A stretch of DNA of 64,000 nucleotides from an uncultured Gammaproteobacteria bacterium (lineage in GTDB: Bacteria; Patescibacteriota; Patescibacteriia; UBA9570), in assembly GCA_964385285.1 (NCBI GenBank), contig CAYLOJ010000005.1, positions 493 to 64,492 on the forward strand, given 5' to 3'. Each line of letters opens with the position of its first letter. Position 1 is the stretch's first letter. Below are positions 3,880-25,887 of the stretch, piece after piece. The translations under genes and the position numbers were made by a program. The notes beneath the pieces were generated by a model. It was not told where the DNA came from, did no database searches, and worked only from the letters and a program-made list of their open reading frames with translations.

Positions 3880-4776
3880 GTGCAGTACATTGTTCTCACG
3901 GTTGGTTCCTACTTGATCTTCAACCTCGGCGTCTGGTTCAGCACCCGAGGTGGAAGCGACTTTGCACTGCCGCTCGGCTACATGCTTGGGTGCACGTTCA
4001 TCCGCTTGCGGTTGGCCGGGCAAATCAAGCAGCAGGCGAATCACCCCATCCAGTGGTGGGTGGTCATCGGCAACACCGCTTCGATCCTGATCACGGCGAA
4101 CGCGCTGCGCTACGCCCATGCCCGCATCCCGCTCAGCCTCAGCATGGAGGCGGTCTACAACGGGCTGGCCATGGCGAGTTGGTTCGTTTTCCTGTTGCTG
4201 GGTCGCTACTGGCCGAGGCAGTTTAGCGATCAACCCAAGTGGTTCGATCTTGGCTGTCACGGTGTGATGTTCATGCTGGTGGTCACGCGCTTCAGCACCT
4301 ACGGTCAGTTCCACCTCACGGGTGATACCATCGTGGCACTGATCTGCGGCATCCTCGGCTACATCGGTGTCAACATCACCATCAAGCTGATGGCCGGGCA
4401 TCGCCTCAGCAGCGTTTACGGCATCCTCGGCGCGGCAGCTATCTTGCTAGGGGTGCAGATCACCAGTGGCCTTCATCACGAGTGGCATTGGAGTAGCGAT
4501 TCGATCATCAGCATACTGTTGGTGTCCATCGCCAGCTATGGTGTTCCAGTCTACCTGGCCGGTGCCTACGGGTACTTCAAGGGCCTCGCTTCGCTGGTAC
4601 CGCCTCTGGTCTACGATTCACTGCTGGTGGCCTCGCCGCTAGTGATGATCGTACGTCAGGAGTCCATCTCCTACTGGACGATCATCGTCGCCATCAACAT
4701 GCTGATCGTCACGGTGGTGCGCTACCTGTACCACACCGGCGGCTGGCGCAAGCTCAAGTCCAAGTTCCGAACGTGA
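3880..4776 (+). CDS. polytopic integral membrane protein, unknown function (high-GC island gene)
   Basis: GTG start with GGAGG 7 nt upstream; about 63% GC with strong GC3 bias; 7-8 predicted TM segments. The antisense ORFs here are typical high-GC shadow ORFs. Confidence 0.55.
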   Translation: MQYIVLTVGSYLIFNLGVWFSTRGGSDFALPLGYMLGCTFIRLRLAGQIKQQANHPIQWWVVIGNTASILITANALRYAHARIPLSLSMEAVYNGLAMASWFVFLLLGRYWPRQFSDQPKWFDLGCHGVMFMLVVTRFSTYGQFHLTGDTIVALICGILGYIGVNITIKLMAGHRLSSVYGILGAAAILLGVQITSGLHHEWHWSSDSIISILLVSIASYGVPVYLAGAYGYFKGLASLVPPLVYDSLLVASPLVMIVRQESISYWTIIVAINMLIVTVVRYLYHTGGWRKLKSKFRT

Positions 4777-4932
4777 GTGGCCCGGGGCGACCATCTTCGC
4801 CCCACCCCCCCCCTGAACCTAGCATTACGCTGGTAGGTTGAGGTGAGTTTTTCCCTGGACAATTTTTATAAATAGTTTACTCTGCTAGCGCTCAGTACGC
4901 TTAGGCGTTCACCCACTGAGTCGGAGTTTCCA

Positions 4933-5187
4933 ATGCTTCCTCCTGACACTAGTGTTTCTGCATACGACCCCGACGACGACTACACCACCGACTCCCAGGG
5001 CTGTGGCGCCGGCGGAACGCCGCCCCGCCTGCCCACCGTCGATCCGGACGACGAGTCCGACGACGTAGCGATCCCCGAACCCACGGTGATCGCTGCGGAT
5101 GGCGAGCCTGTCGACCCACCCGTCGTCGCTGAGGATGACGACGAGCCGGAGTCCGATGACCCCGCCTATTGGGGGCACCACGAGTAG
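4933..5187 (+). CDS. small acidic Pro/Asp-rich low-complexity ORF (doubtful)
   Basis: 84 aa, GC3-rich, but low-complexity sequence in a high-GC region with overlapping ORFs on both strands. Confidence 0.2.
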   Translation: MLPPDTSVSAYDPDDDYTTDSQGCGAGGTPPRLPTVDPDDESDDVAIPEPTVIAADGEPVDPPVVAEDDDEPESDDPAYWGHHE

Positions 5188-5489
5188 CTACTGAGCTACG
5201 GAGGATGGCCAGGGGAGCGCACACGTGCTCCCCACCACTCTTGAATGTAACCATGCGTTGCTTTGAAGAGTGGTCTAAACGATTTCTCGCTAAAGCGCAT
5301 GATGGTCATTGACTGGATGGCATTTTTTCAGTAATGTCTGAACGCTATATTGTTCTTTTGAGTTTAGAGAAAGATTATATTATGGATCATCAGCGGACAT
5401 GTGGTGAGCTAAGTGGAGATAATGACTATCTCTAGCTAGCTCACTACAGAGTTCGGATTCCACCGGACCTGTTTTCACATGGAGCGTTC

Positions 5490-6761
5490 ATGAGTCACCT
5501 GATCGGAGATCCTGCCATTGCTGCGTTGATCGCGGCGGAAGAAGAGCGCCAGCGCAACGACCTCGAGCTCATCGCTTCGGAGAACTACGTCTCTCCGGGC
5601 GTGCTCGCGGTCGTCGGCAGCATGCTCACCAACAAGTACGCTGAGGGTCTCCCCGGTAAGCGCTACTACGGCGGCTGCGAGGTCGTCGACAAGATCGAGG
5701 AGCTGGCCCGCGCCCGCGCCCTTCAGTTGTTCGGTCTGTCCGACACCAACTGGGGGGTAAACGTGCAGCCTCACTCCGGTGCCAACGCCAACCTGGCGCT
5801 GTACCTCGCCACCCTCCAGCCGGGCGACACGCTGATGGGGCTGAACCTCTCGAATGGGGGACACCTCACCCATGGATCCACCGCCAACAGCTCCGGCAAG
5901 CTCTACCGGGCCGTCTACTACGGCGTCAACGAGTCCGGCTACATCGACATGAACGAGGTCCGCGCGATCGCCCTGCGCGAGCGCCCGAAGCTCATCATGA
6001 CCGGTGCTTCCGCCTATCCGCGCACCTGGAACTTTGCCAGCTTCCGGGCCATTGCCGACGAGATCGGTGCCATCCTGGTCAACGACATGGCTCACATTGC
6101 GGGGCTGGTCGCCGCTGGGCTGCATCCGTCGCCGTTCGAGTACTGCGACTACGTCACGACCACCACACACAAGACCCTGCGGGGTCCGCGTGGTGGTCTC
6201 GGCTTCGCTCGCGGCAGCGAGAGGATCAAGGCCTACAACTCTGCGGTCTTCCCGGGTTCCCAAGGTGGTCCGCTCATGCACGTCATCGCCGGCAAGGCGG
6301 TGGCGTTCCACGAGGCGCTCCAGCCTGGATTCCAGATCTACCAGCAGCAGGTGCTCGCCAATGCCCAGGTGATGGCGCGCGTGCTCATGGATTGGGGCTT
6401 CGACCTCGTCTCCGGCGGCACCGACAACCACCTGATGCTGCTCGACCTCTCGAATCGCGACTACTCCGGCAAGGAGGCAGAAGCGATCCTCGGGCGGGCT
6501 GGTATTACCGTCAACAAGAACACCGTACCCAACGAGAAGCGCTCGCCCTTCGTCACCTCCGGGGTCCGCATCGGCACCCCGGCCATGACCACCCGCGGCT
6601 GCAACTCCACGGACGCGGTCGACGTGGCGAACTGGATCGCGGACGCTCTGGAGCATCGCACCGACGAGGCACTGCTCAGTCGTGTTCGTGACGAGGTCCA
6701 CAAGTTGATGGCCAATCGGCCGATTCCGGGCTTCAAAGGGCCGAAAGTCGACCACGAGTAA
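5490..6761 (+). CDS. glyA: serine hydroxymethyltransferase
   Basis: Motifs 'ELIASENY', '[17 protein letters not shown]', and PLP-lysine motif '[14 protein letters not shown]'. About 65% GC with extreme GC3 bias; GGAG SD upstream. Confidence 0.95.
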
Positions 6762-6934
6762 TTCCTGATCTTCTCTCTACTTCCACCCAGGAGGTGACCA
6801 TCATCTGATGGCCGCGAGGAGAGACCAGTACATCTCTCCTCAACGCCCTTGAGATAACCTAACTAGGTTGTTTGAAGGGCGTGATAGAACCGATTCAGGT
6901 TGAGTTCTATAAAGTAAGATGTTATCATTCTGTC

Positions 6935-8353
6935 ATGAAAACTTCTTCCCAAGTATATTTAATCGTTAGCTGTTTAGCCGTAGCTACCCTGGCCCTACCC
7001 GCAACCACTTTAGCCTATGATTCCATGGGTCCAGAAGTGAAGGTCTTTGATCGTAGTCTTGCTGAAACCAACAGTTTTAATGCCTTAAATGGCACCTTTG
7101 AAGGCGGCTTAGATGTGGCAGTTGGTGATGTGGATGGTGATGGCGTAGATGAAATTGTGGTGGGAGCGGGCCGTGATGGTGGTCCAATGGTGCAAGTATT
7201 TGAAGGTGATGGTAGCTTAAAAGCGCAGTGGTTTGCCTATGATAGTAATCTGCGGACTGGTATCAAAGTAGCAGTCGGGGATCTCAATGGAGATGGTAAA
7301 GCTGAGATCGTTACAGGTGTCAGTGCTGGAGGCGGTCCTCAAATACGGATTTTTGATGCCAATGGGAAGAGTAAATTTGGTACGGGTTTTTTTGCCTTTG
7401 ATAGCAGTTTCCGTGGCGGGTGTGATGTGACGGTGGGTGATTTTAATGGCGATGGCAAAGCAGAGATTGCGGCTGCAGCCGGCCCAGGAGGAGACCCTCA
7501 TGTGCGTGTCTTTTCCAGAAAAGGTCGTTTTCTAGGTACAGAATTTCGTCCATTTGCGTCCGATAATAAAGGTGGAGTAGCCTTAGCGACGGCCAATGTT
7601 GATGGTGGCAGTGACGATGAACTGGTCATGTCCATTTACTCAGCCGGTGAAGATTGGGTGAAAGTATATAAAAACAATGGAACAATCTTGGGCGAGTGGA
7701 AGAATTTTGCAGGTCTGTATACTGGAGCGGTTGTCGCTGGTGGTGATATTGATAAAGATGGCAAGGATGAGGTAGCAGTGACACCACGCCAAGGAGCCGG
7801 ACCACACATTCAATTTTATGAAGGTCACGGTGCCTATACCGGCAAAAGTTTTTTTCCGTATGATTCAGATTTTCGTGGGGGTGTAAATATGGCCATGGGC
7901 GATGTAACCGGCGATGGCAAACTGGATGTCGTTACTGTGCCTGGTAAAAATCGCTCGGCTGGTCGAGTAGATCTCGTGCGTTACATTGATACAGATATCT
8001 CTGAACAAACTACGCGCGTATATGAATATGGCGAGCTTGTGCGAGAATTTAAGATCTCCTCGGGTGTGTCCGGTCATGAGACTAACCTCGGCACCTACTC
8101 TGTGCTGCAAAAAATTTACATGAAAGATTACAAATGGGAGTATGGTGAAAATGATCCTGACAACTACGATATTAAAGATGTAAAGTGGAATCTACTCTTT
8201 AATCCAACTGAACGGGAATATTTACACTACGCCTATTGGCATAATAATTTTGGTCACCCCATGAGTCATGGTTGTGTGAATATCAATGCTGAAAATGCTG
8301 AGTGGTTATACAATTGGGCTCAAGTTGGAGATCCAGTGATTATTCACAGTTAA
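6935..8353 (+). CDS. secreted FG-GAP-repeat protein with C-terminal L,D-transpeptidase domain (paralog of 2404-3804)
   Basis: Signal peptide from the ATG at 6935; the track start at 6872 lies inside a hairpin. Repeats of the 'VAVGD.NGDGKAEI' type. C-terminus 'HYAYWHNNFGHPMSHGCVNI'. Confidence 0.75.
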   Translation: MKTSSQVYLIVSCLAVATLALPATTLAYDSMGPEVKVFDRSLAETNSFNALNGTFEGGLDVAVGDVDGDGVDEIVVGAGRDGGPMVQVFEGDGSLKAQWFAYDSNLRTGIKVAVGDLNGDGKAEIVTGVSAGGGPQIRIFDANGKSKFGTGFFAFDSSFRGGCDVTVGDFNGDGKAEIAAAAGPGGDPHVRVFSRKGRFLGTEFRPFASDNKGGVALATANVDGGSDDELVMSIYSAGEDWVKVYKNNGTILGEWKNFAGLYTGAVVAGGDIDKDGKDEVAVTPRQGAGPHIQFYEGHGAYTGKSFFPYDSDFRGGVNMAMGDVTGDGKLDVVTVPGKNRSAGRVDLVRYIDTDISEQTTRVYEYGELVREFKISSGVSGHETNLGTYSVLQKIYMKDYKWEYGENDPDNYDIKDVKWNLLFNPTEREYLHYAYWHNNFGHPMSHGCVNINAENAEWLYNWAQVGDPVIIHS

Positions 8354-11545: not shown

Positions 11546-12673
11546 TTGATGTTTATGGATAATGCAGGTTCAATTTTGGATCGTATTATTGCCAGCAAAG
11601 AAGATCAAGAGAAGCAGGAATTTCAGCCTTTAGAGGTGATTCGTGGTTTGCTTAGTGTACTAAGTGAAAAAGAAGCCGATGTCTTACAGCGACGCTACGG
11701 ATTAAATGGAGTGGCCAAAGAAACGTTAGAGGCGATTGGTGCTTCATACCACGTGACACGTGAACGCATCCGTCAAATTGAAAACTTGGCGGTGAAGAAG
11801 ATTAAAGACGATTCCACATTTCTCTCAGTCATTAAACCCGTTGAGCATGTAATTATCAGCACCATCGAGGAGCATGGTGGAATTATGCAGGAAGAGCATC
11901 TACTCAATGAACTGATGCCAAGCAACCGTACAGCTGCCTTTGATCAAGCCTTAGTCTTCCTACTCACTGAATTATTAGATGATCGTGTTTCTAAGGTTGG
12001 ACCTGATAAGGTTTTCATGAAAGGTTGGCGTGTTAAAACTGCCGATCTCCATTTTATTGGAGATGCTTTAGAGATGTTAGCCAAAACGATTCGTGAAGCT
12101 AATCTGCCGCTAGATTTGGCTGCTTTACTAGAGCGTATTCAGACCGATAGTTTTTATCTGCAGCATGCGGAGCGGCTGAGTGAAAAAACCATCCTCGCTA
12201 TTTTGGAAGTCAGTGCGGTGATTGATCATAACCCGTTTGATGAATATGGTTTGCGTGAGTGGGGTAGTGTAGTGCCTAAACGCATGAACGATAAGATCTA
12301 TCTCATTTTAAAGAAAGTGGGCAAGCCGATGCATTTCATTGATATTGCTAAACAAATTAGTGAAGTGTTTGGCAAAGAAGCTTACCCTCCCACCGTGCAT
12401 AATGAGTTGATCTTAAATAGTCATTATGTGCTGGTCGGACGTGGCATTTATGCCTTGTCGGAGTGGGGGTATGAAAAAGGTGTTGTAGCTGATGTGATCT
12501 CCACAGTATTGCAAGTGAAAGGCAGTCCAATGACACGTGATCAAATTGTCCAAGCGGTGTTAGAACGTAGAATTGTCAAGAAAAACACTATTCATTTAGC
12601 GCTCACTAATAAGAAATTATTTAGTAAGTTGCCCGACGGCCGTTACACCTTAGCGCCGCAGGCAGCCGAATAG
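11546..12673 (+). CDS. protein with N-terminal sigma-70 region-4-like HTH, unknown C-terminal domain
   Basis: 'ADVLQRRYGLNGVAKETLEAIGASYHVTRERIRQIENLAVKKIK' closely matches the sigma-70 region 4.2 consensus. The remaining ~280 aa are unassigned. Confidence 0.5.
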   Translation: MMFMDNAGSILDRIIASKEDQEKQEFQPLEVIRGLLSVLSEKEADVLQRRYGLNGVAKETLEAIGASYHVTRERIRQIENLAVKKIKDDSTFLSVIKPVEHVIISTIEEHGGIMQEEHLLNELMPSNRTAAFDQALVFLLTELLDDRVSKVGPDKVFMKGWRVKTADLHFIGDALEMLAKTIREANLPLDLAALLERIQTDSFYLQHAERLSEKTILAILEVSAVIDHNPFDEYGLREWGSVVPKRMNDKIYLILKKVGKPMHFIDIAKQISEVFGKEAYPPTVHNELILNSHYVLVGRGIYALSEWGYEKGVVADVISTVLQVKGSPMTRDQIVQAVLERRIVKKNTIHLALTNKKLFSKLPDGRYTLAPQAAE

Positions 12674-14242: not shown

Positions 14243-16621
14243 ATGTCTGCAGATATTACAGTCTTTGCCGAAACTAATTTCCGTAACCAACGACGTAAGT
14301 TTGGTATTAAGCGCGATGACCGTCGTCGTCATATGTACGTGGTGGGTAAAACCGGTATGGGTAAATCGACCTTGCTGGAAAATATGATTATTGCCGATAT
14401 CCGCGCTGGTAATGGGTTGGCAGTCGTTGATCCGCACGGCGATCTGGCGGAAAAAATTCTAGAATATATTCCGAATAATCGGGTAAACGATGTAATCTAT
14501 TTTAATCCATCGGATACAAAATTTCCGATCGCCTTCAATATTTTGGAGAGCATTGGCGAAGATTACAAACATTTAGTGGCCTACGGCTTAGTCGGTGTGT
14601 TCAAGAAAATCTGGGCAGATTCGTGGGGTCCTCGTATGGAATATATTATGACCAACACTATCTTGGCGCTGTTGGAGTATCCCGGTAGTACGTTGTTAGG
14701 GTTAATGCGCATGTTGGTAGACAAAACCTATCGCAAAAAGGTTGTTTCCAAAATTCAGGATCCGGTCGTAAAAACCTTCTGGGCAGATGAGTACGCAAAT
14801 TATTCTGAAAAGTTCCGTACAGAGGCGATTGCTCCGATCCAAAACAAAGTCGGTCAATTTTTAGCTTCTGCCATTATTCGTAATATCGTTGGACAATCGA
14901 AAAGTACGATTGAGATGCGCGATATTATGGATAAGCAGAAGATTCTGATTATGAATCTAGCGAAAGGCCGTATTGGTGAAGAAAACTCCGCGTTGTTAGG
15001 CGCAATGATGATTACAAAATTGCAGATTGCCGCGATGAGTCGTGTGGATATTCCAGAACCAGATCGTAAGGATTTTTATCTCTATGTTGATGAGTTTCAG
15101 AACTTTGCCACCGATAGTTTTGCGGGAATTTTATCTGAAGCGCGTAAATATCGGTTGTGTTTAATTATGGCTCATCAGTACTTTGAGCAGCTGGGAGATG
15201 TGGTGAAAGCCGCTGTGTTCGGTAACGTTGGTACGATGATTGTATTTCGCGTAGGTGCGGCGGATGCTGCGGAATTAGAACTGGAATTTGCTCCGCAGTT
15301 CTTGCCAACGGATATTGTAAACCTGAAAAAGTATACTTTTTGCTTGCGTCTGATGGTGGATGGCGTTGCAACCGAACCTTTTTCTGGCATTGGTTTAGCG
15401 CCGGCGTCAGGTGCTACTAGTAACCGAGATAAAATTATTAAGGTGTCACGTGAACGCTATGCGCGTCCACAGGAGATGGTAGAAGATCGTATCATTCGGT
15501 GGAGTGGTGTAGAAATTACCAAACCCGGTGCTACTCCGGTTGATGGTGCACCAGTTGATGATAACAATGATGAAGGGGATGATATGAACTGGCCTGAACC
15601 CACTTGGAAAAATGATCTGCCAGATGATGAGTTAGCGGATATTAGTCCGATTGTGGCAGTGCCAGGCGGTGTGAATGTGGAAGCACCGGTAGCTAATACT
15701 AGCAGTGCCTTTGTAAATGCGGATGGATTTATTCCTGGTGATCACGCTCCTACAATCACAAAAACCCCTACTGAGATGCCAGTGGTCAAAGCTGAGCCTG
15801 TTGTGAAATTGGCTCCCGAGCCGATCAGTGAGGTGCCAGCCGCAGTAACAGCTAGTACAACAGAAGCCAATCGTCCGCGGATTAGCTTTATTAACCATCT
15901 ACCATCTTCTTTGGCGACTGAACCTGTGGAAGAACCTCAACCGGTTGTTGCTGTACCGGTAGTGGATACACCCACACCTACAGTTATGCCTGTTCAACCT
16001 ATTGCACCGACCAAACCACAGCCGCAGGTGAAACAGGCCGTTACTCCACCCACATCTGTTCCGGTAGCACCACAACCTAAAGTGCAACCGATTGCGTCAA
16101 TCAAACCCCCCGTGGTGGCTCCTGTGCAATCCGCCGCACCGATCAAGCCAGCCGCGCCACGTGTTGTACTTGAAACAGAGCCAGACGCTACGGATGATGA
16201 AGGCGATGAGGATACTGACGATGAGGATACTGAAGGTACTGACACTAGTGGTCCAAGTGTTTCTTTGCAGGCACTCAAACAGGGTAATGTCCAATCCGTA
16301 AAATTTTCTGGTGCTCAGAATACTAGTGGTAGTAATAATGGGGTAGGTAATAGTAATTCTGGTGGTGGCGATCCAGCAAAACGTAAACGGAAGCGTAAAC
16401 GGAAGCGTGGAAATGGCAGTGGTAATCCTAGTACCCCTGGTGTTAATCCCGTTGCTGCAACGAGCAACCCTCAACCTAAACAAACTTTTTCTGCGGAAGC
16501 CAGGCCGCGTGCTCAAACTCCTCAACCTAGCCCTGCAGCTAAGCCTGTGGCTCCAGCGCCAACTCCTAAACCAGCCGTCAGTGCTGATACCACTAAAGTA
16601 CAGTGGGGCGATCTATTATGA
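14243..16621 (+). CDS. VirD4/TraG/TraD-like type IV coupling-protein-type ATPase with long disordered Pro/Val/Ala/Thr-rich C-terminal tail
   Basis: Walker A 'VVGKTGMGKST' and Walker B 'LYVDEFQNF' in the TraD/T4SS-DNA-transfer arrangement. The last ~330 aa are low complexity with an acidic 'TDDEGDEDTDDEDTEGTDT' stretch and 'KRKRKRKRKRG'. Confidence 0.6.
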   Translation: MSADITVFAETNFRNQRRKFGIKRDDRRRHMYVVGKTGMGKSTLLENMIIADIRAGNGLAVVDPHGDLAEKILEYIPNNRVNDVIYFNPSDTKFPIAFNILESIGEDYKHLVAYGLVGVFKKIWADSWGPRMEYIMTNTILALLEYPGSTLLGLMRMLVDKTYRKKVVSKIQDPVVKTFWADEYANYSEKFRTEAIAPIQNKVGQFLASAIIRNIVGQSKSTIEMRDIMDKQKILIMNLAKGRIGEENSALLGAMMITKLQIAAMSRVDIPEPDRKDFYLYVDEFQNFATDSFAGILSEARKYRLCLIMAHQYFEQLGDVVKAAVFGNVGTMIVFRVGAADAAELELEFAPQFLPTDIVNLKKYTFCLRLMVDGVATEPFSGIGLAPASGATSNRDKIIKVSRERYARPQEMVEDRIIRWSGVEITKPGATPVDGAPVDDNNDEGDDMNWPEPTWKNDLPDDELADISPIVAVPGGVNVEAPVANTSSAFVNADGFIPGDHAPTITKTPTEMPVVKAEPVVKLAPEPISEVPAAVTASTTEANRPRISFINHLPSSLATEPVEEPQPVVAVPVVDTPTPTVMPVQPIAPTKPQPQVKQAVTPPTSVPVAPQPKVQPIASIKPPVVAPVQSAAPIKPAAPRVVLETEPDATDDEGDEDTDDEDTEGTDTSGPSVSLQALKQGNVQSVKFSGAQNTSGSNNGVGNSNSGGGDPAKRKRKRKRKRGNGSGNPSTPGVNPVAATSNPQPKQTFSAEARPRAQTPQPSPAAKPVAPAPTPKPAVSADTTKVQWGDLL

Positions 16622-18210
16622 TCTTGGCGACTTGTTCGCAGTGCCAACAAGCGTTTTCCATTTTTGAGCAAGATCAGACCTTTTACAAGCGTCTTGGAGT
16701 GCCAAATCCTGTACGCTGTCCGCAATGTCGATTTCAGTTGCGCATGTCATTTCGGAATGAACGGTTTCTCTACCAGCGGAATTGTGCGTTGTGCCATAAG
16801 GTCACTTTGTCACAATATTCACCAGATAAACCCTATGTCATTTATTGTCGTGCCTGTTGGTGGAGCGATCAATGGGATCCACTATCATTCGGACAGCCTA
16901 TCGATTGGTCTAGACCTTTTTTTGAGCAGCTGGCGGAGCTAAAGTTGCACACGCCGCGACTTGCATTACTGAACGATGGTGATAGTGAAAATAGTGAATA
17001 TTGTAACCGTGTGAATAAGCTGAAAAATTGCTACATGATCTTTGATGCTGTGGGGAATGAAAATTGTAGTTACGGTGCTGGCTTATACGGCAATCGAGAC
17101 AGCGTAGATTGTGATTATTGTGATCGCGTTGAGTTATGTTATGACTGTAGTTATTGCACAGAATGCTATAACCTAAAATTCAGCCGGGAGAGTGTGAATT
17201 GTCGAGACAGTGAGTACTTACTCGATTGCGTTGGTGTCTCTAATTCATTGATGTGTGTTGGTTTGCGGAATGTAGAGTATCATTATAAAAATAAACCGGT
17301 CACACCAGCGGAACTGAACCGACTACGACAGATGCCCCACAGCAGTGCTGAGTTTGAGCAATTTGCTTTAAACATGCCACGGCGCTACTACAATGGTGTA
17401 AATAACGCTGATAGTAGTGGTGATCATTTGGTAAATACACACGCTGTCCAAAACTCCTTTCAAGTGCGAGATTCTGAAAACTGTAGCTACTGTTATGGCG
17501 TGCATCACAGTAAGGATTCTTACGATTATACGATTTGGGGCGAACAAGCCGAACTGATGTATGAAGCGCATGCCTGTGGTGGACAGACAACACGCACCTT
17601 ATTTGGCAATGTGGTTTGGTACGGACACGATACCTATTATTGCGACCACTGCTTGAATGGAGCTGTAGATTGTTTTGGCTGCATTGGTTTAAAGAATCAA
17701 TCAAACTGTATTCTGAATAGATCATATTCTCCCGAAGTGTACCAAGCCACCAAAGATAAATTAATTGAACACATGAAAGCGACGGGTGAGTGGGGTCAAT
17801 TTTTTCCGGAGCGTTTGAGCGATTTTGCATATAATGAAACGATGGCTCAAGAATTCTTTCCGCTGACCAAAGCACAAGCTCTAACCCGAGGTTGGCAGTG
17901 GCAGGATCACTTACCCGGTATCTATGGTAAGGCTGATGCGGGTAAGCAGATCTATGATTGCATCGATTGTAGGAAGAATTTTAAATTGGTGACAGCAGAG
18001 CTAGAGTTCTATCAAAAACAGGGTATTCCTGCACCATCGCGCTGTCCGGATTGTCGGCACGCTGCCAGAATGCGATACAGGCCACCCTACCAACTATGGG
18101 AGCGCAGCTGCATGAACACGGGCTGCACGAATCGTTTCCAAACCGCTTATAGTCCAGAACGTAAAGAGATCATCTATTGTGATAGCTGCTATAAACAGTT
18201 AGTCTATTAA
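16618..18210 (+). CDS. Cys-rich tandem-family protein A (N- and C-terminal zinc-ribbon-like modules, Cys-rich repeats)
   Basis: ATG at 16618 overlaps the TGA of the upstream ATPase (ATGA). About 10% Cys. N-terminal 'CSQCQQ..FY..LGVPNPVRCPQCR..LRMSFRNERFLYQRNCALC..VIYCRACWWSD'. C-terminal 'FYQKQGIPAPSRCPDCRHAARMRYRPPYQLWERSC...IIYCDSCY'. Confidence 0.7.
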   Translation: MILATCSQCQQAFSIFEQDQTFYKRLGVPNPVRCPQCRFQLRMSFRNERFLYQRNCALCHKVTLSQYSPDKPYVIYCRACWWSDQWDPLSFGQPIDWSRPFFEQLAELKLHTPRLALLNDGDSENSEYCNRVNKLKNCYMIFDAVGNENCSYGAGLYGNRDSVDCDYCDRVELCYDCSYCTECYNLKFSRESVNCRDSEYLLDCVGVSNSLMCVGLRNVEYHYKNKPVTPAELNRLRQMPHSSAEFEQFALNMPRRYYNGVNNADSSGDHLVNTHAVQNSFQVRDSENCSYCYGVHHSKDSYDYTIWGEQAELMYEAHACGGQTTRTLFGNVVWYGHDTYYCDHCLNGAVDCFGCIGLKNQSNCILNRSYSPEVYQATKDKLIEHMKATGEWGQFFPERLSDFAYNETMAQEFFPLTKAQALTRGWQWQDHLPGIYGKADAGKQIYDCIDCRKNFKLVTAELEFYQKQGIPAPSRCPDCRHAARMRYRPPYQLWERSCMNTGCTNRFQTAYSPERKEIIYCDSCYKQLVY

Positions 18211-18211
18211 T

Positions 18212-19867
18212 ATGTCGTCGAACTGTCGACACTGTCAGTCTGCATTTGTAATCACGAGCAGTGACCAAGCTTATTATGATCGCATCGCCGTACCGGCACC
18301 AACCCTATGCCCGCGTTGTCGTTTGCAGCGTCGCCTAAACATGCGCAATGAACGTGTCTTGTATCGACGCTCATGCGATTTGACCAGTGAATCAATCGTG
18401 ACCATTTTTTCACCGGATAGCCCATATACGGTGTATAGCCAAAGCGCTTGGTGGAGCGATCGTTGGGATCAACTAAAATTTGGCCGGGAGATGGATTTTA
18501 CTCAGCCCTTCTTCGCGCAGTTAAAAGCTTTGCAACTACAGCAGCCGCGCATGGCCTTACTCGCCAAAGATAGCGAGAATTCTGAATATACTAATCATTC
18601 TGCTTACAACAAAAATTGTTATTTAGGTTTTTCTGTGGTGAATTGTGAAGACGTAGCGTACGGATTCATGAATTTTAAATGTCAAAATTTAGTGGATTGC
18701 AGTTACATGTATGATCATAGCGAGCTGTGTTATGAATCTTTCTATGGACACGGAAATTATCGCTGTGCTTACACCACGCTTTGTCGGAATTGCACGAATG
18801 TTTGGTTTAGTTTTGATCTAAGTGGTTGTAAGGATTGCTTCTTGTCATATAACCTGCGCAATAAGCAATATTGTTTTTTAAATCAGCAATTAACTGCCGT
18901 TGAATATCAGCAGCGCGTGGCTGAGTATCAAACCATGACCTATGAGCAACAGCAGGGTCTTATTCAACAATGGCGGATGCTAATGGCTACGCAAGCCGTG
19001 CATCAAGCAACTCATCAAATTCATTGTTCAGACACCACGGGTAATTATCTGGCGCGGTGTCATCAAGTGCACGAAGGATATTATGTATCCGAGGCAGAAA
19101 ATTGTAGTTATGTAGCGCAAGCGGAAAATATTAAAGATTGTGTTGATGTAACCAATGTAGCACCGGCCGAAGCCTGTTATGAGGTTGCGGCTATTATTAA
19201 TGATAATCATTGCAAGTTTACCAACTACTCATATGATGATAGTTTCTTAGAATATTGCGATCACGTATTTAATTCACAACATCTCTTTGGTTGTGTTGGT
19301 CTAAATCGCCAGAAGTATTGTATTTTGAATCGGCAATATACGGAACCAGAATACGAGCGATTAAAAGCCAAATTAATCGCTTACATGAAAACGACGGGGG
19401 AGTACGGTGAGTTTTTCCCCTTAGGATATTCACCCTTTGCGTATAACGAAACGGTTGCCCAGGATTTTTTCCCTCTCACCAAAGCGCAAGCCCTAGCCTT
19501 GGGTGCTCAGTGGAATGATGCACTCGATCTCTTATCGCCAATTACCAATGGAGTAGATGCAAGTACATTGCCAGATACGATTGCTGGTGTTGAGGATGAT
19601 ATCCTGACTAAAACGTTGATATGCATTGTCTCTAAACGTGCCTATAAAATTCAACCCACTGAACTGTACCTGTATCGACAGCTGGGAATACCGTTGCCAC
19701 GTAAACATCCCGAAGTTCGGTTGAAGGAGCGCATGACCCAACGGGTCACCCCCGGTTTATTTGAACGCCAGTGCAACAAATGTTTACGGTCAGTGGCATC
19801 CAGTTTTGCAGCCGATCGTTCAGAGCGGATCTATTGTGCAAGCTGTTATCGCGAGGCCGTTTATTAG
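18212..19867 (+). CDS. Cys-rich tandem-family protein B (partly degenerate zinc ligands)
   Basis: Starts 1 nt after A's stop. N-terminal 'CRHCQ...YYDRIAVPAPTLCPRCRLQRRLNMRNERVLYRRSC', but the second knuckle is lost ('VYSQSAWWSD'). The C-terminal module has 'RKHPEVR' in place of CPxCR. Confidence 0.7.
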   Translation: MSSNCRHCQSAFVITSSDQAYYDRIAVPAPTLCPRCRLQRRLNMRNERVLYRRSCDLTSESIVTIFSPDSPYTVYSQSAWWSDRWDQLKFGREMDFTQPFFAQLKALQLQQPRMALLAKDSENSEYTNHSAYNKNCYLGFSVVNCEDVAYGFMNFKCQNLVDCSYMYDHSELCYESFYGHGNYRCAYTTLCRNCTNVWFSFDLSGCKDCFLSYNLRNKQYCFLNQQLTAVEYQQRVAEYQTMTYEQQQGLIQQWRMLMATQAVHQATHQIHCSDTTGNYLARCHQVHEGYYVSEAENCSYVAQAENIKDCVDVTNVAPAEACYEVAAIINDNHCKFTNYSYDDSFLEYCDHVFNSQHLFGCVGLNRQKYCILNRQYTEPEYERLKAKLIAYMKTTGEYGEFFPLGYSPFAYNETVAQDFFPLTKAQALALGAQWNDALDLLSPITNGVDASTLPDTIAGVEDDILTKTLICIVSKRAYKIQPTELYLYRQLGIPLPRKHPEVRLKERMTQRVTPGLFERQCNKCLRSVASSFAADRSERIYCASCYREAVY

Positions 19868-19989: not shown

Positions 19990-21567
19990 ATGCCAACTCG
20001 TACATGTACCAATTGCTCCGGACAATTTAATCTCTCATCTGCAGATGAAAAATTTTATCAGTCCATCAGTGCACCACTACCCAAACAGTGTCCGCGTTGT
20101 CGCCAGCAGCGGCGCTTAGCGTATCGTAACGAACGCGCATTATTTGCTGATCAGTGTGCGAAATGTCAAACAAAGATTTTGTCATTGTATCAACCCACGG
20201 ATGGTTTGACGGTCTATTGCCAGACGTGTTGGTGGAGTGATGATTGGGATGCAGCCGATTATGGACAGGAGATCGATTGGAATCGTTCATTGTTGGAGCA
20301 ATATCAGGAAGTACGCAAACGTGTACCGCGCCTAGCCATTGTCAATTTGAATAGTGAAAATTCAGATTACACCAACATGTCAGCGGACAACAAAAATTGT
20401 TATCTATTGTTCGCATCAGAAAACTGTGAGAACTGTTCCTATGGAAAATTAGTTCAACACTGCAAAGACTGCTTTGATAATGCTTTTCTGTATGATTCTG
20501 AATTGTGTTATGAATGCATTAATTGTCGCAATTGTTTTCAGTGTACATATTTGCAGGATTCCCAAGACTCACGAGATTGTCATTACTCGTTAGGCTTAAA
20601 AGGTTGCAGTAATGTTTTTTTAAGCAATGATTTGCATAATAAAGAGTATTATATTCGTAACCAACCCGTTGCCCCGCAGGAATATGCAGCCAAGGTAGCA
20701 GAGTTATTAAAGGATCAACCGCAATGTCAGCGAGAATGGGATGCGTTATCACAAAAACGGATTGTAAAATACGCCGGAATTTTGAATAGCCCAGATTGCA
20801 CTGGTGACGCACTGACCAATTGTAAACGTGTGTTTGACTCGTATGATATTACCGATGGTCAAGATATCCGTTATTGCAGTGATGCCCTCACTCCGAAAGA
20901 TAGTTATGATTGTTCATTCTTCTATTACAATCCAGAATTGTGTTACGACTCACTCAGCATGCTGGAAACATACAACGTGCATTATTCAACCTTTATTTTT
21001 TATAGTCGTGATGTTGAATATGGTGATCAGATCCACAATAGTCATGACGTCTTATTATCTTCTTGCCTCCGTAAAAAAGAGTACACCATATTAAATAAAG
21101 TTTACTCTCCTACGGAATACGCAGACTTACGGAAGCGAGTGATTGCTAAAATGACCGAAGATGGTGAATACGGAGCCTTGCCGCCACTGAAGTATAGTTT
21201 GTTTGCCTATAATGATACTGTCGCTAACGAATACTTTCCATTGACCGCTGATCAAGCCAAACAAAGACATCTACGTTGGAACCAATCCGCAGATGCTGTA
21301 ACTACTAAGCCCTTTAACCTGACAGCGGCCGAAAAAGCCTTTTACGCTCAATTACATTTAACCGAACCTACTGTACATCCCGAACTGCGTCATCGTCGTC
21401 GCATGGCTAAACGTAATCCACGCAAATTATGGGAGCGCCAGTGTATGTGCGTGGAGGCAGATCATCAGCACGCCGTACAGTGTCCTAAGAAGTTTCACAC
21501 TACGTATATGCCTGATCGTTCAGAAAGTGTCTATTGTGCCGAGTGTTATCAAAAACGTTTTTACTAA
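19990..21567 (+). CDS. Cys-rich tandem-family protein C
   Basis: N-terminal 'CTNCSG..FYQSISAPLPKQCPRCRQQRRLAYRNERALFADQCAKC..VYCQTCWWSD'. C-terminal '...VHPELRHRRRMAKRNPRKLWERQCMC..DHQH..VYCAECY'. Confidence 0.7.
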   Translation: MPTRTCTNCSGQFNLSSADEKFYQSISAPLPKQCPRCRQQRRLAYRNERALFADQCAKCQTKILSLYQPTDGLTVYCQTCWWSDDWDAADYGQEIDWNRSLLEQYQEVRKRVPRLAIVNLNSENSDYTNMSADNKNCYLLFASENCENCSYGKLVQHCKDCFDNAFLYDSELCYECINCRNCFQCTYLQDSQDSRDCHYSLGLKGCSNVFLSNDLHNKEYYIRNQPVAPQEYAAKVAELLKDQPQCQREWDALSQKRIVKYAGILNSPDCTGDALTNCKRVFDSYDITDGQDIRYCSDALTPKDSYDCSFFYYNPELCYDSLSMLETYNVHYSTFIFYSRDVEYGDQIHNSHDVLLSSCLRKKEYTILNKVYSPTEYADLRKRVIAKMTEDGEYGALPPLKYSLFAYNDTVANEYFPLTADQAKQRHLRWNQSADAVTTKPFNLTAAEKAFYAQLHLTEPTVHPELRHRRRMAKRNPRKLWERQCMCVEADHQHAVQCPKKFHTTYMPDRSESVYCAECYQKRFY

Positions 21568-21586: not shown

Positions 21587-23257
21587 ATGAATATCCAATG
21601 CCAACAGTGTCACAAAACGTTTCAGGTCACGCCCGATGACCAGTCGTTTTACGAACGGATCAAAGTACCTGCACCGACACTATGTCCAGATTGTCGCTAT
21701 CAGCGGCGCATTGTGTGGAGGAATGAGCGAACGTTATATAGTCGCCAGTGTGATCTTTGCCATAAAGGTATTATCTCGCTCTATCATCCGGCAAGTCCCT
21801 ACACGGTCTATTGCTATGAGTGCTGGTACTCTGATCAATGGAATCCATTAGATTACGGGCAGGAGATCGATTTTAGTCGTCCATTTTTTGAGCAGTTCAA
21901 AGCGTTGCAGCTAAAAGTCCCTCGGTTGTATGCCTTGATGGTTAACAATGAAAATTGTGAATATACCAATGGTACTCAGCAATGCAAAGATTGTTACATG
22001 ATTTTTGCTAGTGATCATGACGAACAGTGTATGTATTCCTATGGCACCTTTAATTCTGTGCAATCATTAGATCTAATGAGTAGTACTAAATGTGAGCTGT
22101 GTTATGAATGTGTTGGTTGCAGCAATTGTTATGATCTGCAGTATTCTGAGGATTGCAGTAATTGTCACTCCTCACTATTTCTGATTGACTGCAAGGGGAG
22201 TAGTGATTGCTTCATGTCGTATGGATTGCGAAATAAACAATATGTTTGGCAAAATCAGCAATTAACAGCTGAACAGTATCAGACAAAGCTGGCAAATTTA
22301 AAACGCAGTAGCTATCAAACGATTGCTCGGCTAAAAACAGAGTTTGCTAATCTGAAAAAGAAACACATCTTCAAATATTATCATGGCCAGAATAATGAGA
22401 ATTGTTCTGGTGACTACCTGGAGCGGTGTGTCAATAGTACTCACTGCTTTGAAAGTTTTGGGATTCAAAATTGCAAGTATATTACACATGGTAACCAAAT
22501 TAAAGATACCTATGATGGTTATATGAATGTGGATGGAGTGGAGCTCGGTTATGAATTAGTGGGGGCGATTGGTTCCTATAATGTGAAGTATGCGATTGCC
22601 TATTATGGTGGCCGAGATTGTGACTATATGGATACGGCCAAACAGGTGAATAACAGTTTTGGTTGTGTGGGATTGCAGCACCAGCAGTATTGTATTCTGA
22701 ACAAACGCTACAGCCCAGAAGACTATGCCCAGTTGAAGAGTCGTCTGATTGAACATATGAAAACTACGGGTGAGTATGGTCAGAATTTTCCAGTGACCTG
22801 TTCACCATTCGCGTATAATGAAACAGCAGCTCAGGACATGTATCCTTTGACCAAAGCTGAAGTGGAGGGTCGGGGATGGCAATGGCGTGATCCAATCGTC
22901 AAAGAGGCGCGCTATAGTACTTATCGTGTAACGGATGACATCGCTAAAACTAATGATGATGTCTTGCAAACATTTTTGACCTGTGCGCAATGCCATAAGC
23001 CTTATAGAGTTGTAGCAGCAGAATTGGCGTTTTACCGTACGCAACAGATTCCGTTGCCACGCTGCTGTTTTGAATGTCGTCATCGCCAGCGCTTAGATCA
23101 CCGCAACCCGAGAGCTCTCTGGCATAGGCAGTGCATGTGCACTCAACCAGATCATGGCCACGCTGCAGTTTGTGCCAACACCTTTGAAACGGCTTATCCA
23201 GAGAGTAATGCGGCAATTGTCTACTGTGAACGCTGCTACGATCAAACCATTGCTTAA
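21587..23257 (+). CDS. Cys-rich tandem-family protein D
   Basis: N-terminal 'CQQCHKTF..FYERIKVPAPTLCPDCRYQRRIVWRNERTLYSRQCDLC..VYCYECWYSD'. C-terminal 'FYRTQQIPLPRCCFECRHRQRLDHRNPRALWHRQCMC..DHGH..VYCERCY'. 19 nt after C. Confidence 0.7.
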   Translation: MNIQCQQCHKTFQVTPDDQSFYERIKVPAPTLCPDCRYQRRIVWRNERTLYSRQCDLCHKGIISLYHPASPYTVYCYECWYSDQWNPLDYGQEIDFSRPFFEQFKALQLKVPRLYALMVNNENCEYTNGTQQCKDCYMIFASDHDEQCMYSYGTFNSVQSLDLMSSTKCELCYECVGCSNCYDLQYSEDCSNCHSSLFLIDCKGSSDCFMSYGLRNKQYVWQNQQLTAEQYQTKLANLKRSSYQTIARLKTEFANLKKKHIFKYYHGQNNENCSGDYLERCVNSTHCFESFGIQNCKYITHGNQIKDTYDGYMNVDGVELGYELVGAIGSYNVKYAIAYYGGRDCDYMDTAKQVNNSFGCVGLQHQQYCILNKRYSPEDYAQLKSRLIEHMKTTGEYGQNFPVTCSPFAYNETAAQDMYPLTKAEVEGRGWQWRDPIVKEARYSTYRVTDDIAKTNDDVLQTFLTCAQCHKPYRVVAAELAFYRTQQIPLPRCCFECRHRQRLDHRNPRALWHRQCMCTQPDHGHAAVCANTFETAYPESNAAIVYCERCYDQTIA

Positions 23258-23395: not shown

Positions 23396-24172
23396 ATGAT
23401 TACTAGCAAAGTTAAGAAAGATCTTTCCCAACTAGGTTTAACCGACAACGAGATCAAATTCTATGTGGCCGGATTGGAGTTAGGCTTGGCGACGATTCCA
23501 CAAATTGCTGAACGCGCCGGTTTATCCCGCATGACTGGTTATAACATTTTTAAAGTGTTGAGCCAGAAAGGGATGGCCGATATGGATGTACGTAGTTATG
23601 GTCAGAAATGTAAAGTGGCGAAACCAGCAAAATTACTCACTTTGTTTGAGCAGGAACGCAAAAGCTTAGATAAATTGGCCACCGACATGCCCAATTTAAT
23701 TGGGGAGTTGAATGTGTTGTATTCCTCAGTACCAGAGGATTTAGAGATCCATTACTTTCGCGCGAAAGAAGCGATCACTAAAATTTGGGACGAGGCCTTA
23801 ACCAACACAAAAAAAGGGGATGATCTATTAGTGCTATCCGCTGTAGATCTAGCGCCTACTCTGGGTGAACACTATCTGGAATTCATGGAAGAGCAACTGT
23901 TGCGTAGTACAGAGAAAGGGATTCACCTGAAAATGATTTTGGAAAAAACAGGTACCTATACCATCGCGCGAAGTGAGCTACAGCAACTTATTCCAGAATC
24001 AATGCAAATGAAATTAGGCGCTACATGTGATCAATTGATTTATGCTGATCACGTGGCCTACATATTTCCAGGCCGTGAATTGTTTGGCATCACTATTCAC
24101 AATAAAGAATTGGCTAATCACCATTCCAGAATTTTCTACACGTTGTGGAATAAAACCTATTCGTTAAATTAA
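23396..24172 (+). CDS. TrmB-family HTH transcriptional regulator
   Basis: N-terminal 'LSQLGLTDNEIKFYVAGLELGLATIPQIAERAGLSRMTGYNIFKVLSQKGM' fits the TrmB wHTH pattern (GL..E.KVY..LL..G..T..EIA...G..R..VY..L..L..KG). Embedded between family genes D and E. Confidence 0.6.
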   Translation: MITSKVKKDLSQLGLTDNEIKFYVAGLELGLATIPQIAERAGLSRMTGYNIFKVLSQKGMADMDVRSYGQKCKVAKPAKLLTLFEQERKSLDKLATDMPNLIGELNVLYSSVPEDLEIHYFRAKEAITKIWDEALTNTKKGDDLLVLSAVDLAPTLGEHYLEFMEEQLLRSTEKGIHLKMILEKTGTYTIARSELQQLIPESMQMKLGATCDQLIYADHVAYIFPGRELFGITIHNKELANHHSRIFYTLWNKTYSLN

Positions 24173-24258
24173 TTACCGTTTAGTAATGGGCATAAAGCCC
24201 ATCCCTCTCAATTATTTCTGGAGACCCCGGGTTTATCCTGGTGGTCAAACGATTATTT

Positions 24259-25887
24259 ATGCAAACTTCCCAATGTCAAAATTGTAGTAAAACCTTCCGT
24301 ATCACTGATACTGATTTAGCATTTTACAAAACGATCGATGTTCCATCACCCACACATTGTCCAGATTGTCGACAACGTCGGCGGTTAGCCTGGCGCAATG
24401 AGCATACGTTATATAACCGGCAGTGCGATCTCTGTAAAAAAGCCATTGTCTCGATTTATCCGGCCAACTCCACGTTTACAATTTATTGCCATGACTGCTG
24501 GTGGAGTGATCAGTGGAACGCTTTAGATTATGGACAGGCGATTGATTGGGAAAGACCATTTTTTGCGCAGTGGAATGAACTGCAGCAAAAAGTGCCCAAG
24601 ATTGCCTTGTACGCAGCTGACAATGAACAATCGGATTATGTGAATATGACCGGATACAGCAAAGGTTGCTATTTAGTATTCGCCGGCGATTACGATGAGG
24701 ATTGCATGTATTCCACGCAAGCCATTAAATCGATTAGTTGTGTGGATACGTTGAATTGCACCGAAAGTGAGGATTGTTACGAAGTGGTCGATGTGGAGCG
24801 GTGTTACCGATTGTTTTGGTCACAGAATTGCAAGCATTGCACGGATAGTATGTTTTTATTTGATTGTCGTGGTTGTACAGATTGTTTATTTTCTACTAAC
24901 TTACGCAACCAACGCTATTACATTTTTAATAAGGAATATACACCAGAACAATATCAACAAAAAAAAGCTGAGTTAATTGCCGAAATCCGTTCTGGTAAGT
25001 TGCCGAGCCTGTTAAGACAGTTTCAAGACTTATGCATTAAAGCCATCCATCGTCCCTTGGAACAAGCCAATAGTGAAGCGATCTCCGGTGACTTTATCTT
25101 TAATTCTCAGGATGCGCAGCAATGTTATGACGTAAATGGTATTGAACATTGCCGCTATGTGTACACAGGATTTCATGTGAAGGACCTTATGGATGTCTGT
25201 CATACCACTGATATCGAATTAGGCTATGAGGCCACCAGCATTGGCTATAACGCATATAATTGTCAGTTTGTGATGACCGCTTGGACTGTACGAGATTGTT
25301 ATTACAGCACTGAGATTTTTCATAGTCATGATCTCTTTGGCTGTGTTGGCTTATCCAAGCAACAATTCTGTATATTAAATACACAGTACACCGAAGAGGA
25401 GTATCATCAGCTCAAGAAAAAATTGGTGGATCAGATGCGTGCAACAGGTGAGTATGGCGAGTTTTTTCCTATGTCACTCAGCCCGTTTGCCTATAACGCT
25501 AGCATGGCACAGGTGTGGTATCCGTTAACACGCGAGCAAGTTCAGGCTGAACAATTGCAATGGTATGAAGAGCCGGCCAAACTGAACACCAGCGGTACAG
25601 ATGTGCTGAGGTGCACCAAGACTGGTAGGTCATATCGTGTTATTCCACAGGAGCGTGCTTGGTATCAGCGAATGGGATTACCGATTCCAGTAGTGTGCCC
25701 TGATGAACGTCGCCGTCTCCGTTTTATTCAACGCAATCCACGCCAATTATGGCAACGGCAGTGCATGTGTACACAAACTGATCATCAACATCATGGACGT
25801 TGTAGCGAAGAGTTTGCCACTACCTATGCTCCAGATCGGAAAGAGCTAGTATATTGTGAGCACTGCTACCAGAAAGAGGTGCTTTAA
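24259..25887 (+). CDS. Cys-rich tandem-family protein E
   Basis: The ATG at 24259 ('MQTSQCQNC') aligns with the paralog starts; the track GTG at 24241 is an alternative. C-terminal 'GLPIPVVCPDERRRLRFIQRNPRQLWQRQCMC..DHQHH..VYCEHCY'. Confidence 0.7.
   Translation: MQTSQCQNCSKTFRITDTDLAFYKTIDVPSPTHCPDCRQRRRLAWRNEHTLYNRQCDLCKKAIVSIYPANSTFTIYCHDCWWSDQWNALDYGQAIDWERPFFAQWNELQQKVPKIALYAADNEQSDYVNMTGYSKGCYLVFAGDYDEDCMYSTQAIKSISCVDTLNCTESEDCYEVVDVERCYRLFWSQNCKHCTDSMFLFDCRGCTDCLFSTNLRNQRYYIFNKEYTPEQYQQKKAELIAEIRSGKLPSLLRQFQDLCIKAIHRPLEQANSEAISGDFIFNSQDAQQCYDVNGIEHCRYVYTGFHVKDLMDVCHTTDIELGYEATSIGYNAYNCQFVMTAWTVRDCYYSTEIFHSHDLFGCVGLSKQQFCILNTQYTEEEYHQLKKKLVDQMRATGEYGEFFPMSLSPFAYNASMAQVWYPLTREQVQAEQLQWYEEPAKLNTSGTDVLRCTKTGRSYRVIPQERAWYQRMGLPIPVVCPDERRRLRFIQRNPRQLWQRQCMCTQTDHQHHGRCSEEFATTYAPDRKELVYCEHCYQKEVL

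Follow-up and report, generated by a model that had tools for sequence, protein, structure and literature searches.

Small proteins that combine the Pfam fingers zf_Tbcl (PF13451) and zf_Tbcl_2 (PF23477) fall into at least 7941 clusters, many of them from Clostridia; they are 92–155 residues long and are labelled 'zinc-ribbon domain containing protein'. For small proteins of Methanosarcina mazei with the spacing CxxC-x17-CxxC, bound zinc has been demonstrated by inductively coupled plasma mass spectrometry (PMC12704099). Here, we compare these systems with an array of five paralogous genes in a 64,000-nt stretch of contig CAYLOJ010000005.1, which at its full length is called the window below. 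The paralogs, labelled A to E in gene order, lie on one strand between positions 16618 and 25887, with a gene for a TrmB-like helix-turn-helix (HTH) protein between D and E, and each of them encodes the same cysteine-rich module at its start and at its end. The explanation that we favour, with a probability of roughly 0.6, is that every paralog carries a two-finger zinc cassette at each terminus and that these cassettes act as docking handles.

All ten termini of the five proteins align as one block with their Cys columns in register, which bears out the proposal of an earlier note on this DNA that each paralog is capped at both ends by one and the same module. The size given there, ~70 residues, was too small: we measured ~85 residues at the N-terminus and 81–91 residues at the C-terminus. 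BLASTP comparisons between N- and C-terminal modules yielded 24–35% identity over 74–85 residues. Moreover, a hidden Markov model (HMM) built from the five N-terminal segments recovered every C-terminus with independent E-values, scaled to a million-sequence database, of 8e-13 to 2.8e-8, and the reverse search from C-terminal segments to N-termini gave values of 2.8e-14 to 1.5e-8; no other part of paralogs A–E scored with either model. The N- and C-terminal sub-alignments of 149 diverse homologs matched in hhalign with a probability of 99.9% (E 1.8e-32) over 77 columns, and a six-frame scan of the entire window detected the module exactly ten times, the next-best match having an E-value of 0.5. 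Mean identity amounts to 47% among the N-terminal copies, 38% among the C-terminal copies and 29% between the two sets. Both copies are present in 208 of 208 diverse relatives, and the duplication is therefore older than the radiation of the family. The conservation of the Cys positions, implied by the consensus strings of the note, holds across the family in both the ten-module and the homolog alignments, which also point to an ancient duplication.

Each module is composed of two fingers, and these are not copies of each other. The suggestion that the module is a tandem duplicate of a single finger was rejected, as hhalign assigned a probability of only 7–16% to the comparison of finger 1 with finger 2. 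Like fingers do match across the termini (finger 1 with finger 1, E 2.8e-25; finger 2 with finger 2, E 6e-15), and the duplicated unit is therefore the two-finger cassette. We modelled its fold with AlphaFold2 (AF2) using paralog D, which also serves as the reference for residue numbering. The full-length model reached a predicted local distance difference test (pLDDT) score of 84.6 and a predicted template modelling (pTM) score of 0.85, and the module alone a pLDDT of 90. As assigned by DSSP, finger 1 is predicted to consist of a strand (residues 2–4), a knuckle with C5 and C8, a strand (11–13), a helix (16–24) and the pair C33/C36 that opens helix 34–44. Finger 2 would comprise a strand (51–54), the knuckle C55/C58, a further strand (61–64) and the pair C76/C79 opening helix 77–80. 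The C-terminal copy has the same layout, with strands near 464–473 and a helix at 495–505.

In the classical zinc ribbon of the TFIIB/TFIIS type, the ligands are also two CxxC pairs, the first of them in a β-hairpin knuckle, and the note had described the module as zinc-ribbon-like. This label is not supported by the modelling. In the AF2 model of full-length D and in that of the module alone, each finger has its second ligand pair at the N-terminus of a helix, and finger 1 has its CxxC in a β-hairpin and its second Cys pair at the helix start, as in a treble clef; in neither model do both ligand pairs come from β-hairpin knuckles, as in a zinc ribbon, and zinc-ribbon profiles produced only short, sub-threshold partial matches. 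Judging from the models, the fold is a double treble clef rather than a zinc ribbon. The profile searches agree for finger 1: above the PF13451 gathering cut-off of 24 bits are the N-termini of A (39 bits), B (28.5) and D (27.2, or 31.4 for the D module alone), with those of C (17.9) and E (19.7) below it. Pfam names the matching models 'probable treble clef', PF13451 being its 'probable treble clef domain'. Among the ten isolated modules, zf_Tbcl and zf_Tbcl_2 each matched six at E≤1, with a best PF23477 E-value of 8e-4. The exact spacing CxxC-x17-CxxC is found in N-terminal finger 2 of A, C, D and E and in C-terminal finger 2 of B; the first knuckle of C-terminal finger 2 is C-x4-C in A and holds a 10-residue insert in C, D and E. 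Foldseek searches of the PDB with the module model returned generic C2H2, XPA and PHD matches below significance, and in BFVD finger 1 matched phage proteins labelled 'zinc-ribbon domain' only locally, with root-mean-square deviations of 0.5–0.7 Å over 36–39 residues. Full-length D had no match among PDB sequences, and the PDB searches yielded no solved structure of the cassette. In sum, the module is very probably a zinc cassette of two treble clefs, present in duplicate.

How closely this cassette corresponds to the stand-alone proteins became apparent from a tblastn search of phage records with the N-terminal module of A, which gave a marginal match over both fingers (E 9e-3) to a 93-residue open reading frame (ORF) in an 'UNVERIFIED' contig. 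The encoded protein scores 88.7 bits with PF13451, 72 bits with PF23477 and 72 bits with the NCBIfam model TIGR04272 ('CxxC-x17-CxxC'), and hhalign aligned the ten window modules to it with a probability of 98.5% (E 1.8e-15) over 82 columns spanning both fingers. According to these profile comparisons, the whole module is homologous to the abundant zf_Tbcl plus zf_Tbcl_2 protein. The two have the same finger order and spacing and share the signatures E/D..FY, P.P..C..CR..R and VYC..C. They differ in that the cassette stands alone there, whereas here two of them flank a protein of ~550 residues; in addition, finger 2 here falls below the PF23477 and TIGR04272 cut-offs, a CxC-x4-HxH insert is frequent in the C-terminal copy, and the inner fingers often lack any zinc ligands. 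In Clostridia-type contigs, the stand-alone gene is located 57–110 nt downstream of a small sigma-70 gene on the same strand, in three differing neighbourhoods; the partner gene encodes a protein of 182–206 residues with regions r2 and r4_2. A sigma-70 gene followed by a small gene on the same strand is typical of sigma/anti-sigma pairs, and the arrangement hints, as a lead only, at a transcription-protein partner of the stand-alone cassette.

Two further systems invite comparison. The M. mazei proteins A00184 and A01980 have the CxxC-x17-CxxC spacing of finger 2, and their zinc binding is an experimental result (PMC12704099), the only functional literature found; unlike the cassette, they are archaeal and contain a single finger, and we liken them by spacing rather than by a direct homology test. 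LIM domains share with the cassette the tandem arrangement of zinc fingers of the treble-clef class, and finger 2 resembles the pattern 'W/YH..C..C......(x17)..YC..CY' of the second LIM finger, as reflected in a profile search of PDB sequences (CRP1, PDB 1b8t; E 1.4e-4). In contrast to LIM, where two residues separate the fingers, an 18-residue helix lies between them here; finger 1 is unrelated to the first LIM finger, the Pfam LIM model reaches only E 0.099 (two of ten modules), and Foldseek against the PDB produced no structural match. We therefore treat the similarity of finger 2 to LIM finger 2 as a sequence resemblance only, and as a lead. Literature searches on PF13451, zf-trcl/zf_Tbcl, DUF8128 and treble clefs in Patescibacteria found no papers, and reviews of Patescibacteria and a metatranscriptome paper contained nothing relevant to the family. 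The cassette is catalogued and uncharacterised, its two-ended use is the variant seen here, and the family with its neighbourhood appears to be undescribed.

The paralogs differ in which fingers retain their ligands. The consensus strings of the earlier note and the degenerate segments RKHPEVR (B), VHPELR (C) and VYSQSAWWSD (B) are present as quoted, but the losses reach further than described. In C-terminal finger 1 of B and C, CPxCR is indeed replaced, and the first knuckle, which had been overlooked, is also gone (CIVS in B, ADAV in C). N-terminal finger 2 of B has lost its YCxxC knuckle as stated, and in fact three of its four Cys, keeping one. Degeneration is not confined to B and C either, as C-terminal finger 1 of E reads CTKT...CPDE. 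Among the 208 diverse homologs, the four Cys are present in C-terminal finger 2 of all 208 and in N-terminal finger 1 of 191, the remaining 17 showing other states. For N-terminal finger 2, we counted four Cys in 150, two in one, one in 50 and none in seven; for C-terminal finger 1, four in 141, three in seven, two in 16, one in 41 and none in three. N-terminal finger 2 is likewise bimodal in the 259 copies encoded by the window and 79 fetched loci, where C-terminal finger 1 is more intermediate. Ligands are thus mostly lost as a whole quartet, the pattern that metal sites predict. Losses in the two inner fingers are correlated, with an odds ratio of 6.3 (p 4e-8, by a statistic that ignores phylogeny).

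The note had explained the degenerate copies by relaxed selection on metal binding. This reading is misleading in view of the concerted nature of the Cys loss, the recurrence of the same states in orthologs and the conservation of the degenerate fingers. In an ortholog of B with 66% overall identity, N-terminal finger 2 likewise reads C-T-S-A and C-terminal finger 1 reads C-T-H-V, and the two degenerate fingers are 76% and 69% identical between the proteins; orthologs of E with 68–82% identity always have C-T-C-E in C-terminal finger 1. Conservation of the degenerate fingers between orthologs is on a par with that of the remaining protein. Furthermore, in the 67 C-terminal fingers 1 without a full Cys quartet, E479, P491 and R498 are retained in 67/67 each, R502 in 66/67 and R514 in 65/67. 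Arrays with at least three copies nearly always (42/43) mix intact and zinc-less copies, and some lineages have only a '+--+' form, with intact outer and zinc-less inner fingers. Parsimony on a neighbour-joining tree required ~35–37 state changes per inner finger compared to 50–56 at random; because the tree is poorly resolved, this figure is only a rough sign of recurrence. Ligand loss is a stable zinc-free remodelling and not decay; what can be replaced in the inner fingers is the zinc brace, while the fingers themselves are retained. The CxC-x4-HxH insert that C, D and E have in their C-terminal modules, not pointed out in the earlier note, also behaves as a unit, being entirely present in 102 and entirely absent in 101 of the 208 relatives. 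It co-varies with intact inner fingers and with E532/E534, and the latter coupling makes it a possible fifth metal site in C, D and E. H499 was considered as the fourth ligand of this site and was rejected, as it is not coupled to the insert, whereas E532 and E534 are.

Between the modules lies a core that is itself duplicated. Residues ~100–240 of D match ~258–395 with an hhalign probability of 99.95% (E 1e-37), and each half ends in GC(V/I)GLRNxxYCILNKQYxxEEY; a few relatives have a single half, such as P0216 (391 residues) and P0251 (444 residues). P0204, with 199 residues, contains two modules and no core and is apparently either a fragment or the product of an internal deletion. In the first half, Cys occurs at every third residue and is often replaced by Ser, Val or Leu. 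We rejected these Cys as Fe-S or Zn ligands: their period of three and their replacement one at a time, unlike the module Cys, are the behaviour of packing residues. No Pfam model matched the core even at E≤10, and Foldseek against the PDB gave only weak matches to left-handed β-helices. In the AF2 model, the C-terminal module is set off from the core by a helical linker of ~70 residues. Median net charge is +3 for the N-terminal module, +4 for the C-terminal module and −14 for the core.

A search with the module profile returned 4067 representatives at 50% clustering, the best 150 of which all have at least two matches per protein and are nearly all 444–597 residues long. D itself is 100% identical to one NCBI metagenome protein, and the nearest relatives that carry a name come from Candidatus Kerfeldbacteria, which places the window in a Patescibacteria (CPR) genome. 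Scanning one genome per species yielded at least 591 loci; the best 78 of these all belong to Patescibacteria lineages or unclassified bacterial metagenome-assembled genomes (MAGs), except for three MAGs labelled Gammaproteobacteria. The family is thus found only in Patescibacteria-type genomes. Loci of ~22 kb hold 1–11 family copies. Searches with D by tblastn against phages and plasmids gave no match, PADLOC had no match for the family, and the annotation tables of Southlakia epibionticum ML1 do not list it, so that no transposon-sequencing data apply.

Gene neighbourhoods were counted in 80 loci, the window and the 79 fetched ones, many of which are truncated. A VirD4/TrwB/HerA-like ATPase is encoded in 23 of them, often as the immediate same-strand neighbour of the array, and a DUF8128-like protein with a hydrophobic N-terminus in 16; the two are fused in nine proteins, with fusions of ~747 residues in loci of Peribacteria, Gracilibacteria and Abawacabacteria (e.g. 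L009, L024, L039). The TrmB-like HTH protein occurs in 20/80 loci, often interleaved and in several copies. The window shares with Kerfeldbacteria- and Staskawiczbacteria-labelled loci the order SecD, SecF, sigma-r4/HARE-HTH, DUF8128, ATPase, array. Several side observations concern these neighbours. In these loci, the sigma-r4/HARE-HTH gene (11546–12673; 375 residues, sigma-70 region 4 at the N-terminus and HARE-HTH at the C-terminus) holds a conserved place, with secF on one side and the DUF8128/ATPase/array block on the other. The ATPase that follows the DUF8128-like protein is a soluble one and may be a Patescibacteria 'orphan' type IV coupling protein (T4CP); its C-terminal ~400 residues (~15500–16621) are of low complexity, rich in Pro, Thr, Ala and Val, and include a KRKRKRKRKR run. 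The TrmB-like gene encodes ~250–280 residues, the C-terminal domain of which is unassigned, and is present in 2–4 copies in some loci (L017, L028, L039), as if co-amplified with the zinc-capped genes. In a Kerfeldbacteria contig (L038, 7792–9291), the copy at the position of paralog B is split into ORFs of 161, 285 and 85 residues, reflecting either a pseudogene or an assembly error.

We propose that the cassette pre-existed as a stand-alone small protein and that the ancestor of the family placed one copy at either end of a core formed by internal duplication of a Cys/Ser-laddered, β-solenoid-like domain. Our comparisons show the repetition and homology of the modules, the conservation and concerted loss of their ligands, and the taxonomic range, arrays and neighbourhood of the genes; the identity of the metal, its stoichiometry and the binding role are what we infer: each intact finger would hold one structural Zn(Cys4), predicting four Zn in A and D, three in C and E and two in B, and the CxC..HxH insert may add one metal site in C, D and E. 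Zinc would brace small basic modules at the ends of an acidic core, with the conserved helix residues R37/R41/R45 and R498/R502 forming a binding surface. The outermost fingers, N-terminal finger 1 and C-terminal finger 2, would be indispensable, and the inner ones could exchange zinc for polar side chains with fold and function kept. Most likely, the two modules would be equivalent handles that dock or clamp a partner, be it a polyanion (nucleic acid, for example) or a protein of the co-located ATPase/TrmB/sigma-like gene set. Docking surfaces are favoured because the modules are basic on an acidic core, the Arg ladder is kept without zinc and the outermost fingers are never dispensable; as a role taken by itself, docking remains tentative, at somewhat less than even odds. 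Several points weigh against the proposal. Finger 2 reaches at best 15.3 bits with PF23477 (cut-off 27 bits) and 11.8 bits with TIGR04272 (cut-off 36 bits), Foldseek searches of the PDB with the full and module models gave nothing significant (E>0.09), the whole protein is mildly acidic (pI ~6.1), and our literature searches turned up no functional work on either the cassette or the family.

If the handles were specifically a nucleic-acid clamp, in line with the contact that the note had suggested for the RRL..RNER track, the basic modules (+3 and +4) would contact DNA or RNA through the Arg ladder of the treble-clef helix, with the acidic solenoid core as a spacer. R37, R41 and R45 are indeed spaced i, i+4, i+8 on helix 34–44, nearly invariant and kept in zinc-less fingers, and the neighbours include an HTH regulator, the sigma-r4/HARE-HTH protein and a TrwB-like ATPase with a 'DNA-binding domain' Pfam model. 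However, the stand-alone cassette is about neutral (+1 by hand count on the 93-residue sequence), the protein as a whole is acidic, and neither PDB sequence-profile nor Foldseek searches gave a significant match to a known nucleic-acid-binding family. Moreover, the CR..R signature was already present in the ancestral cassette and is not specific to this family. An invariant acid stands in sequence register with the Arg (D18 with R37, E479 with R498), suggesting an internal salt bridge, and this pairing may be structural; we regard a nucleic-acid clamp as doubtful. By analogy with the C-terminal domains of type IV secretion substrates, the terminal fingers could instead be a docking signal that makes the family members clients or substrates of the orphan VirD4/TrwB-like ATPase and the DUF8128 protein. 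Patescibacteria carry 5713 VirD4-like genes, only 148 of them near virB4, and exaptation has been suggested (PMC12102498); in the 23 loci with the ATPase, which span several candidate phyla, it directly adjoins the array in the same orientation, 3–100 nt away, it is multi-copy in some arrays, it is fused to DUF8128 in some lineages, and C-terminal finger 2 is invariant. This role is nonetheless unlikely: adjacency is seen in under a third of the loci, although many are truncated, folded zinc-stabilised domains make poor secretion substrates, and conservation spans the whole protein and not the termini alone.

The modules might also have no ligand of their own and simply shield and stabilise the open ends of the β-solenoid-like core. 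The pTM of 0.85 and pLDDT values that exceed 90 in each module and in the segments next to it suggest packing on the core, and an inner finger can lose its zinc and otherwise stay unchanged. Against such caps, R41, R45, N46, E47, R502 and R514 are polar and invariant among paralogs that are 35–40% identical, beyond what capping needs, and the ~70-residue linker sets the C-terminal module apart from the core. The same cassette, in addition, exists as a small protein on its own and therefore has a function of its own. We consider a purely structural role improbable. That the Cys4 sites bind iron as in rubredoxin, or act as a thiol redox switch, is highly improbable: the geometry is common to rubredoxins and there are weak sub-threshold matches to rubredoxin-like and cytochrome-c-type models, but entire sites are dispensable in many paralogs, the loci examined contain no redox partner genes, and homologous CxxC-x17-CxxC proteins were purified with zinc (PMC12704099). 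Beyond the docking-handle reading that we prefer, one may picture the ATPase, the DUF8128 membrane part, the TrmB-like protein and the zinc-capped proteins as one co-amplified, Patescibacteria-specific system, in which the ATPase would take hold of up to ~10 diversified paralogs by their invariant outer fingers, for translocation to a host or for nucleic-acid handling; this picture is a long shot.

Table 1. Features of the array and its neighbourhood (window positions, except where a locus is named; residues in D numbering for the insert)
Feature	Position	Strand	Characteristics or basis
DUF8128-like protein, hydrophobic N-terminal segment	12678..14237	+	gene context; fused to ATPase in other lineages
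VirD4/TrwB/HerA-like P-loop ATPase, directly upstream of array	14243..16621	+	gene context
Paralog A, 530 aa	16618..18210	+	four fingers each with four Cys; CxC..HxH insert absent
A N-terminal module, aa 1-86	16618..16875	+	finger 1 CxxC...CPxC, Arg-rich helix, finger 2 CxxC-x17-CxxC, then WWSDxW; PF13451 39 bits
Duplicated central region	16900-17950 in A, equivalent in B-E	+	hhalign
A C-terminal module, aa 448-530	17959..18207	+	alignment, N-versus-C search
Paralog B, 551 aa	18212..19867	+	outer fingers intact; inner fingers zinc-less (N finger 2 C-T-S-A, C finger 1 C-S-H-V)
B N-terminal module	18212..18466	+	alignment
B C-terminal module	19622..19864	+	alignment
Paralog C, 525 aa	19990..21567	+	C-terminal finger 1 without any of the four Cys (ADAV...HPEL); insert present
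C N-terminal module	19990..20247	+	alignment
C C-terminal module	21292..21564	+	alignment
Paralog D, 556 aa	21587..23257	+	every finger intact; CxC-x4-HxH insert present
D N-terminal module, aa 1-85	21587..21841	+	Cys 5/8/33/36 and 55/58/76/79; R37/R41/R45 on helix 34-44
D C-terminal module, aa 466-556	22982..23254	+	Cys 466/469/494/497 and 516/529/547/550; insert C518/H523/H525
CxC-x4-HxH insert	D residues 516-529, ~23132-23173; equivalent in C, E	+	alignment
TrmB-like HTH protein, interleaved in array	23396..24172	+	gene context
Paralog E, 548 aa from GTG 24241; probable start ATG 24259	24241..25887	+	C-terminal finger 1 half-degenerate (CTKT...CPDE); insert present
E N-terminal module	24259..24516	+	alignment
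E C-terminal module	25612..25884	+	alignment
Stand-alone gene and sigma-70 pairs	L080 799-1758; L081-L085 3324-4294; L088-L090 2346-3282	same strand	gene context

Paralog A has an alternative GTG start at 16603 that overlaps the end of the ATPase gene. Elsewhere in the window, positions 4001–8000 have a G+C content of 0.54–0.59 compared to 0.42–0.47 in the remainder; this stretch contains a serine hydroxymethyltransferase gene (5490–6761; Pfam SHMT, E 2e-163), possibly acquired horizontally, and an antisense ORF of 426 residues that is probably a shadow ORF. An ORF of 1623 residues (36968–41839) encodes LysM and SLT transglycosylase domains and thus a large cell-wall-acting protein, a type that has been discussed for epibiont attachment. 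An Rfam scan of the window found nothing.

As the module itself is a catalogued zinc-finger cassette, the bare observation is a result on domain architecture. Its wider interest lies in the family: up to 11 tandem copies amount to ~20 kb of coding sequence in genomes that are generally described as small and streamlined, and the paralogs constitute a natural experiment in which whole zinc sites have repeatedly been swapped out with the finger kept. The orphan VirD4-like ATPases that adjoin the arrays in epibiotic bacteria gain concrete candidate partners. Should the ATPase, DUF8128, TrmB-like and zinc-capped proteins indeed form one system, the purpose of thousands of 'orphan' T4CP genes in Patescibacteria would be explained.

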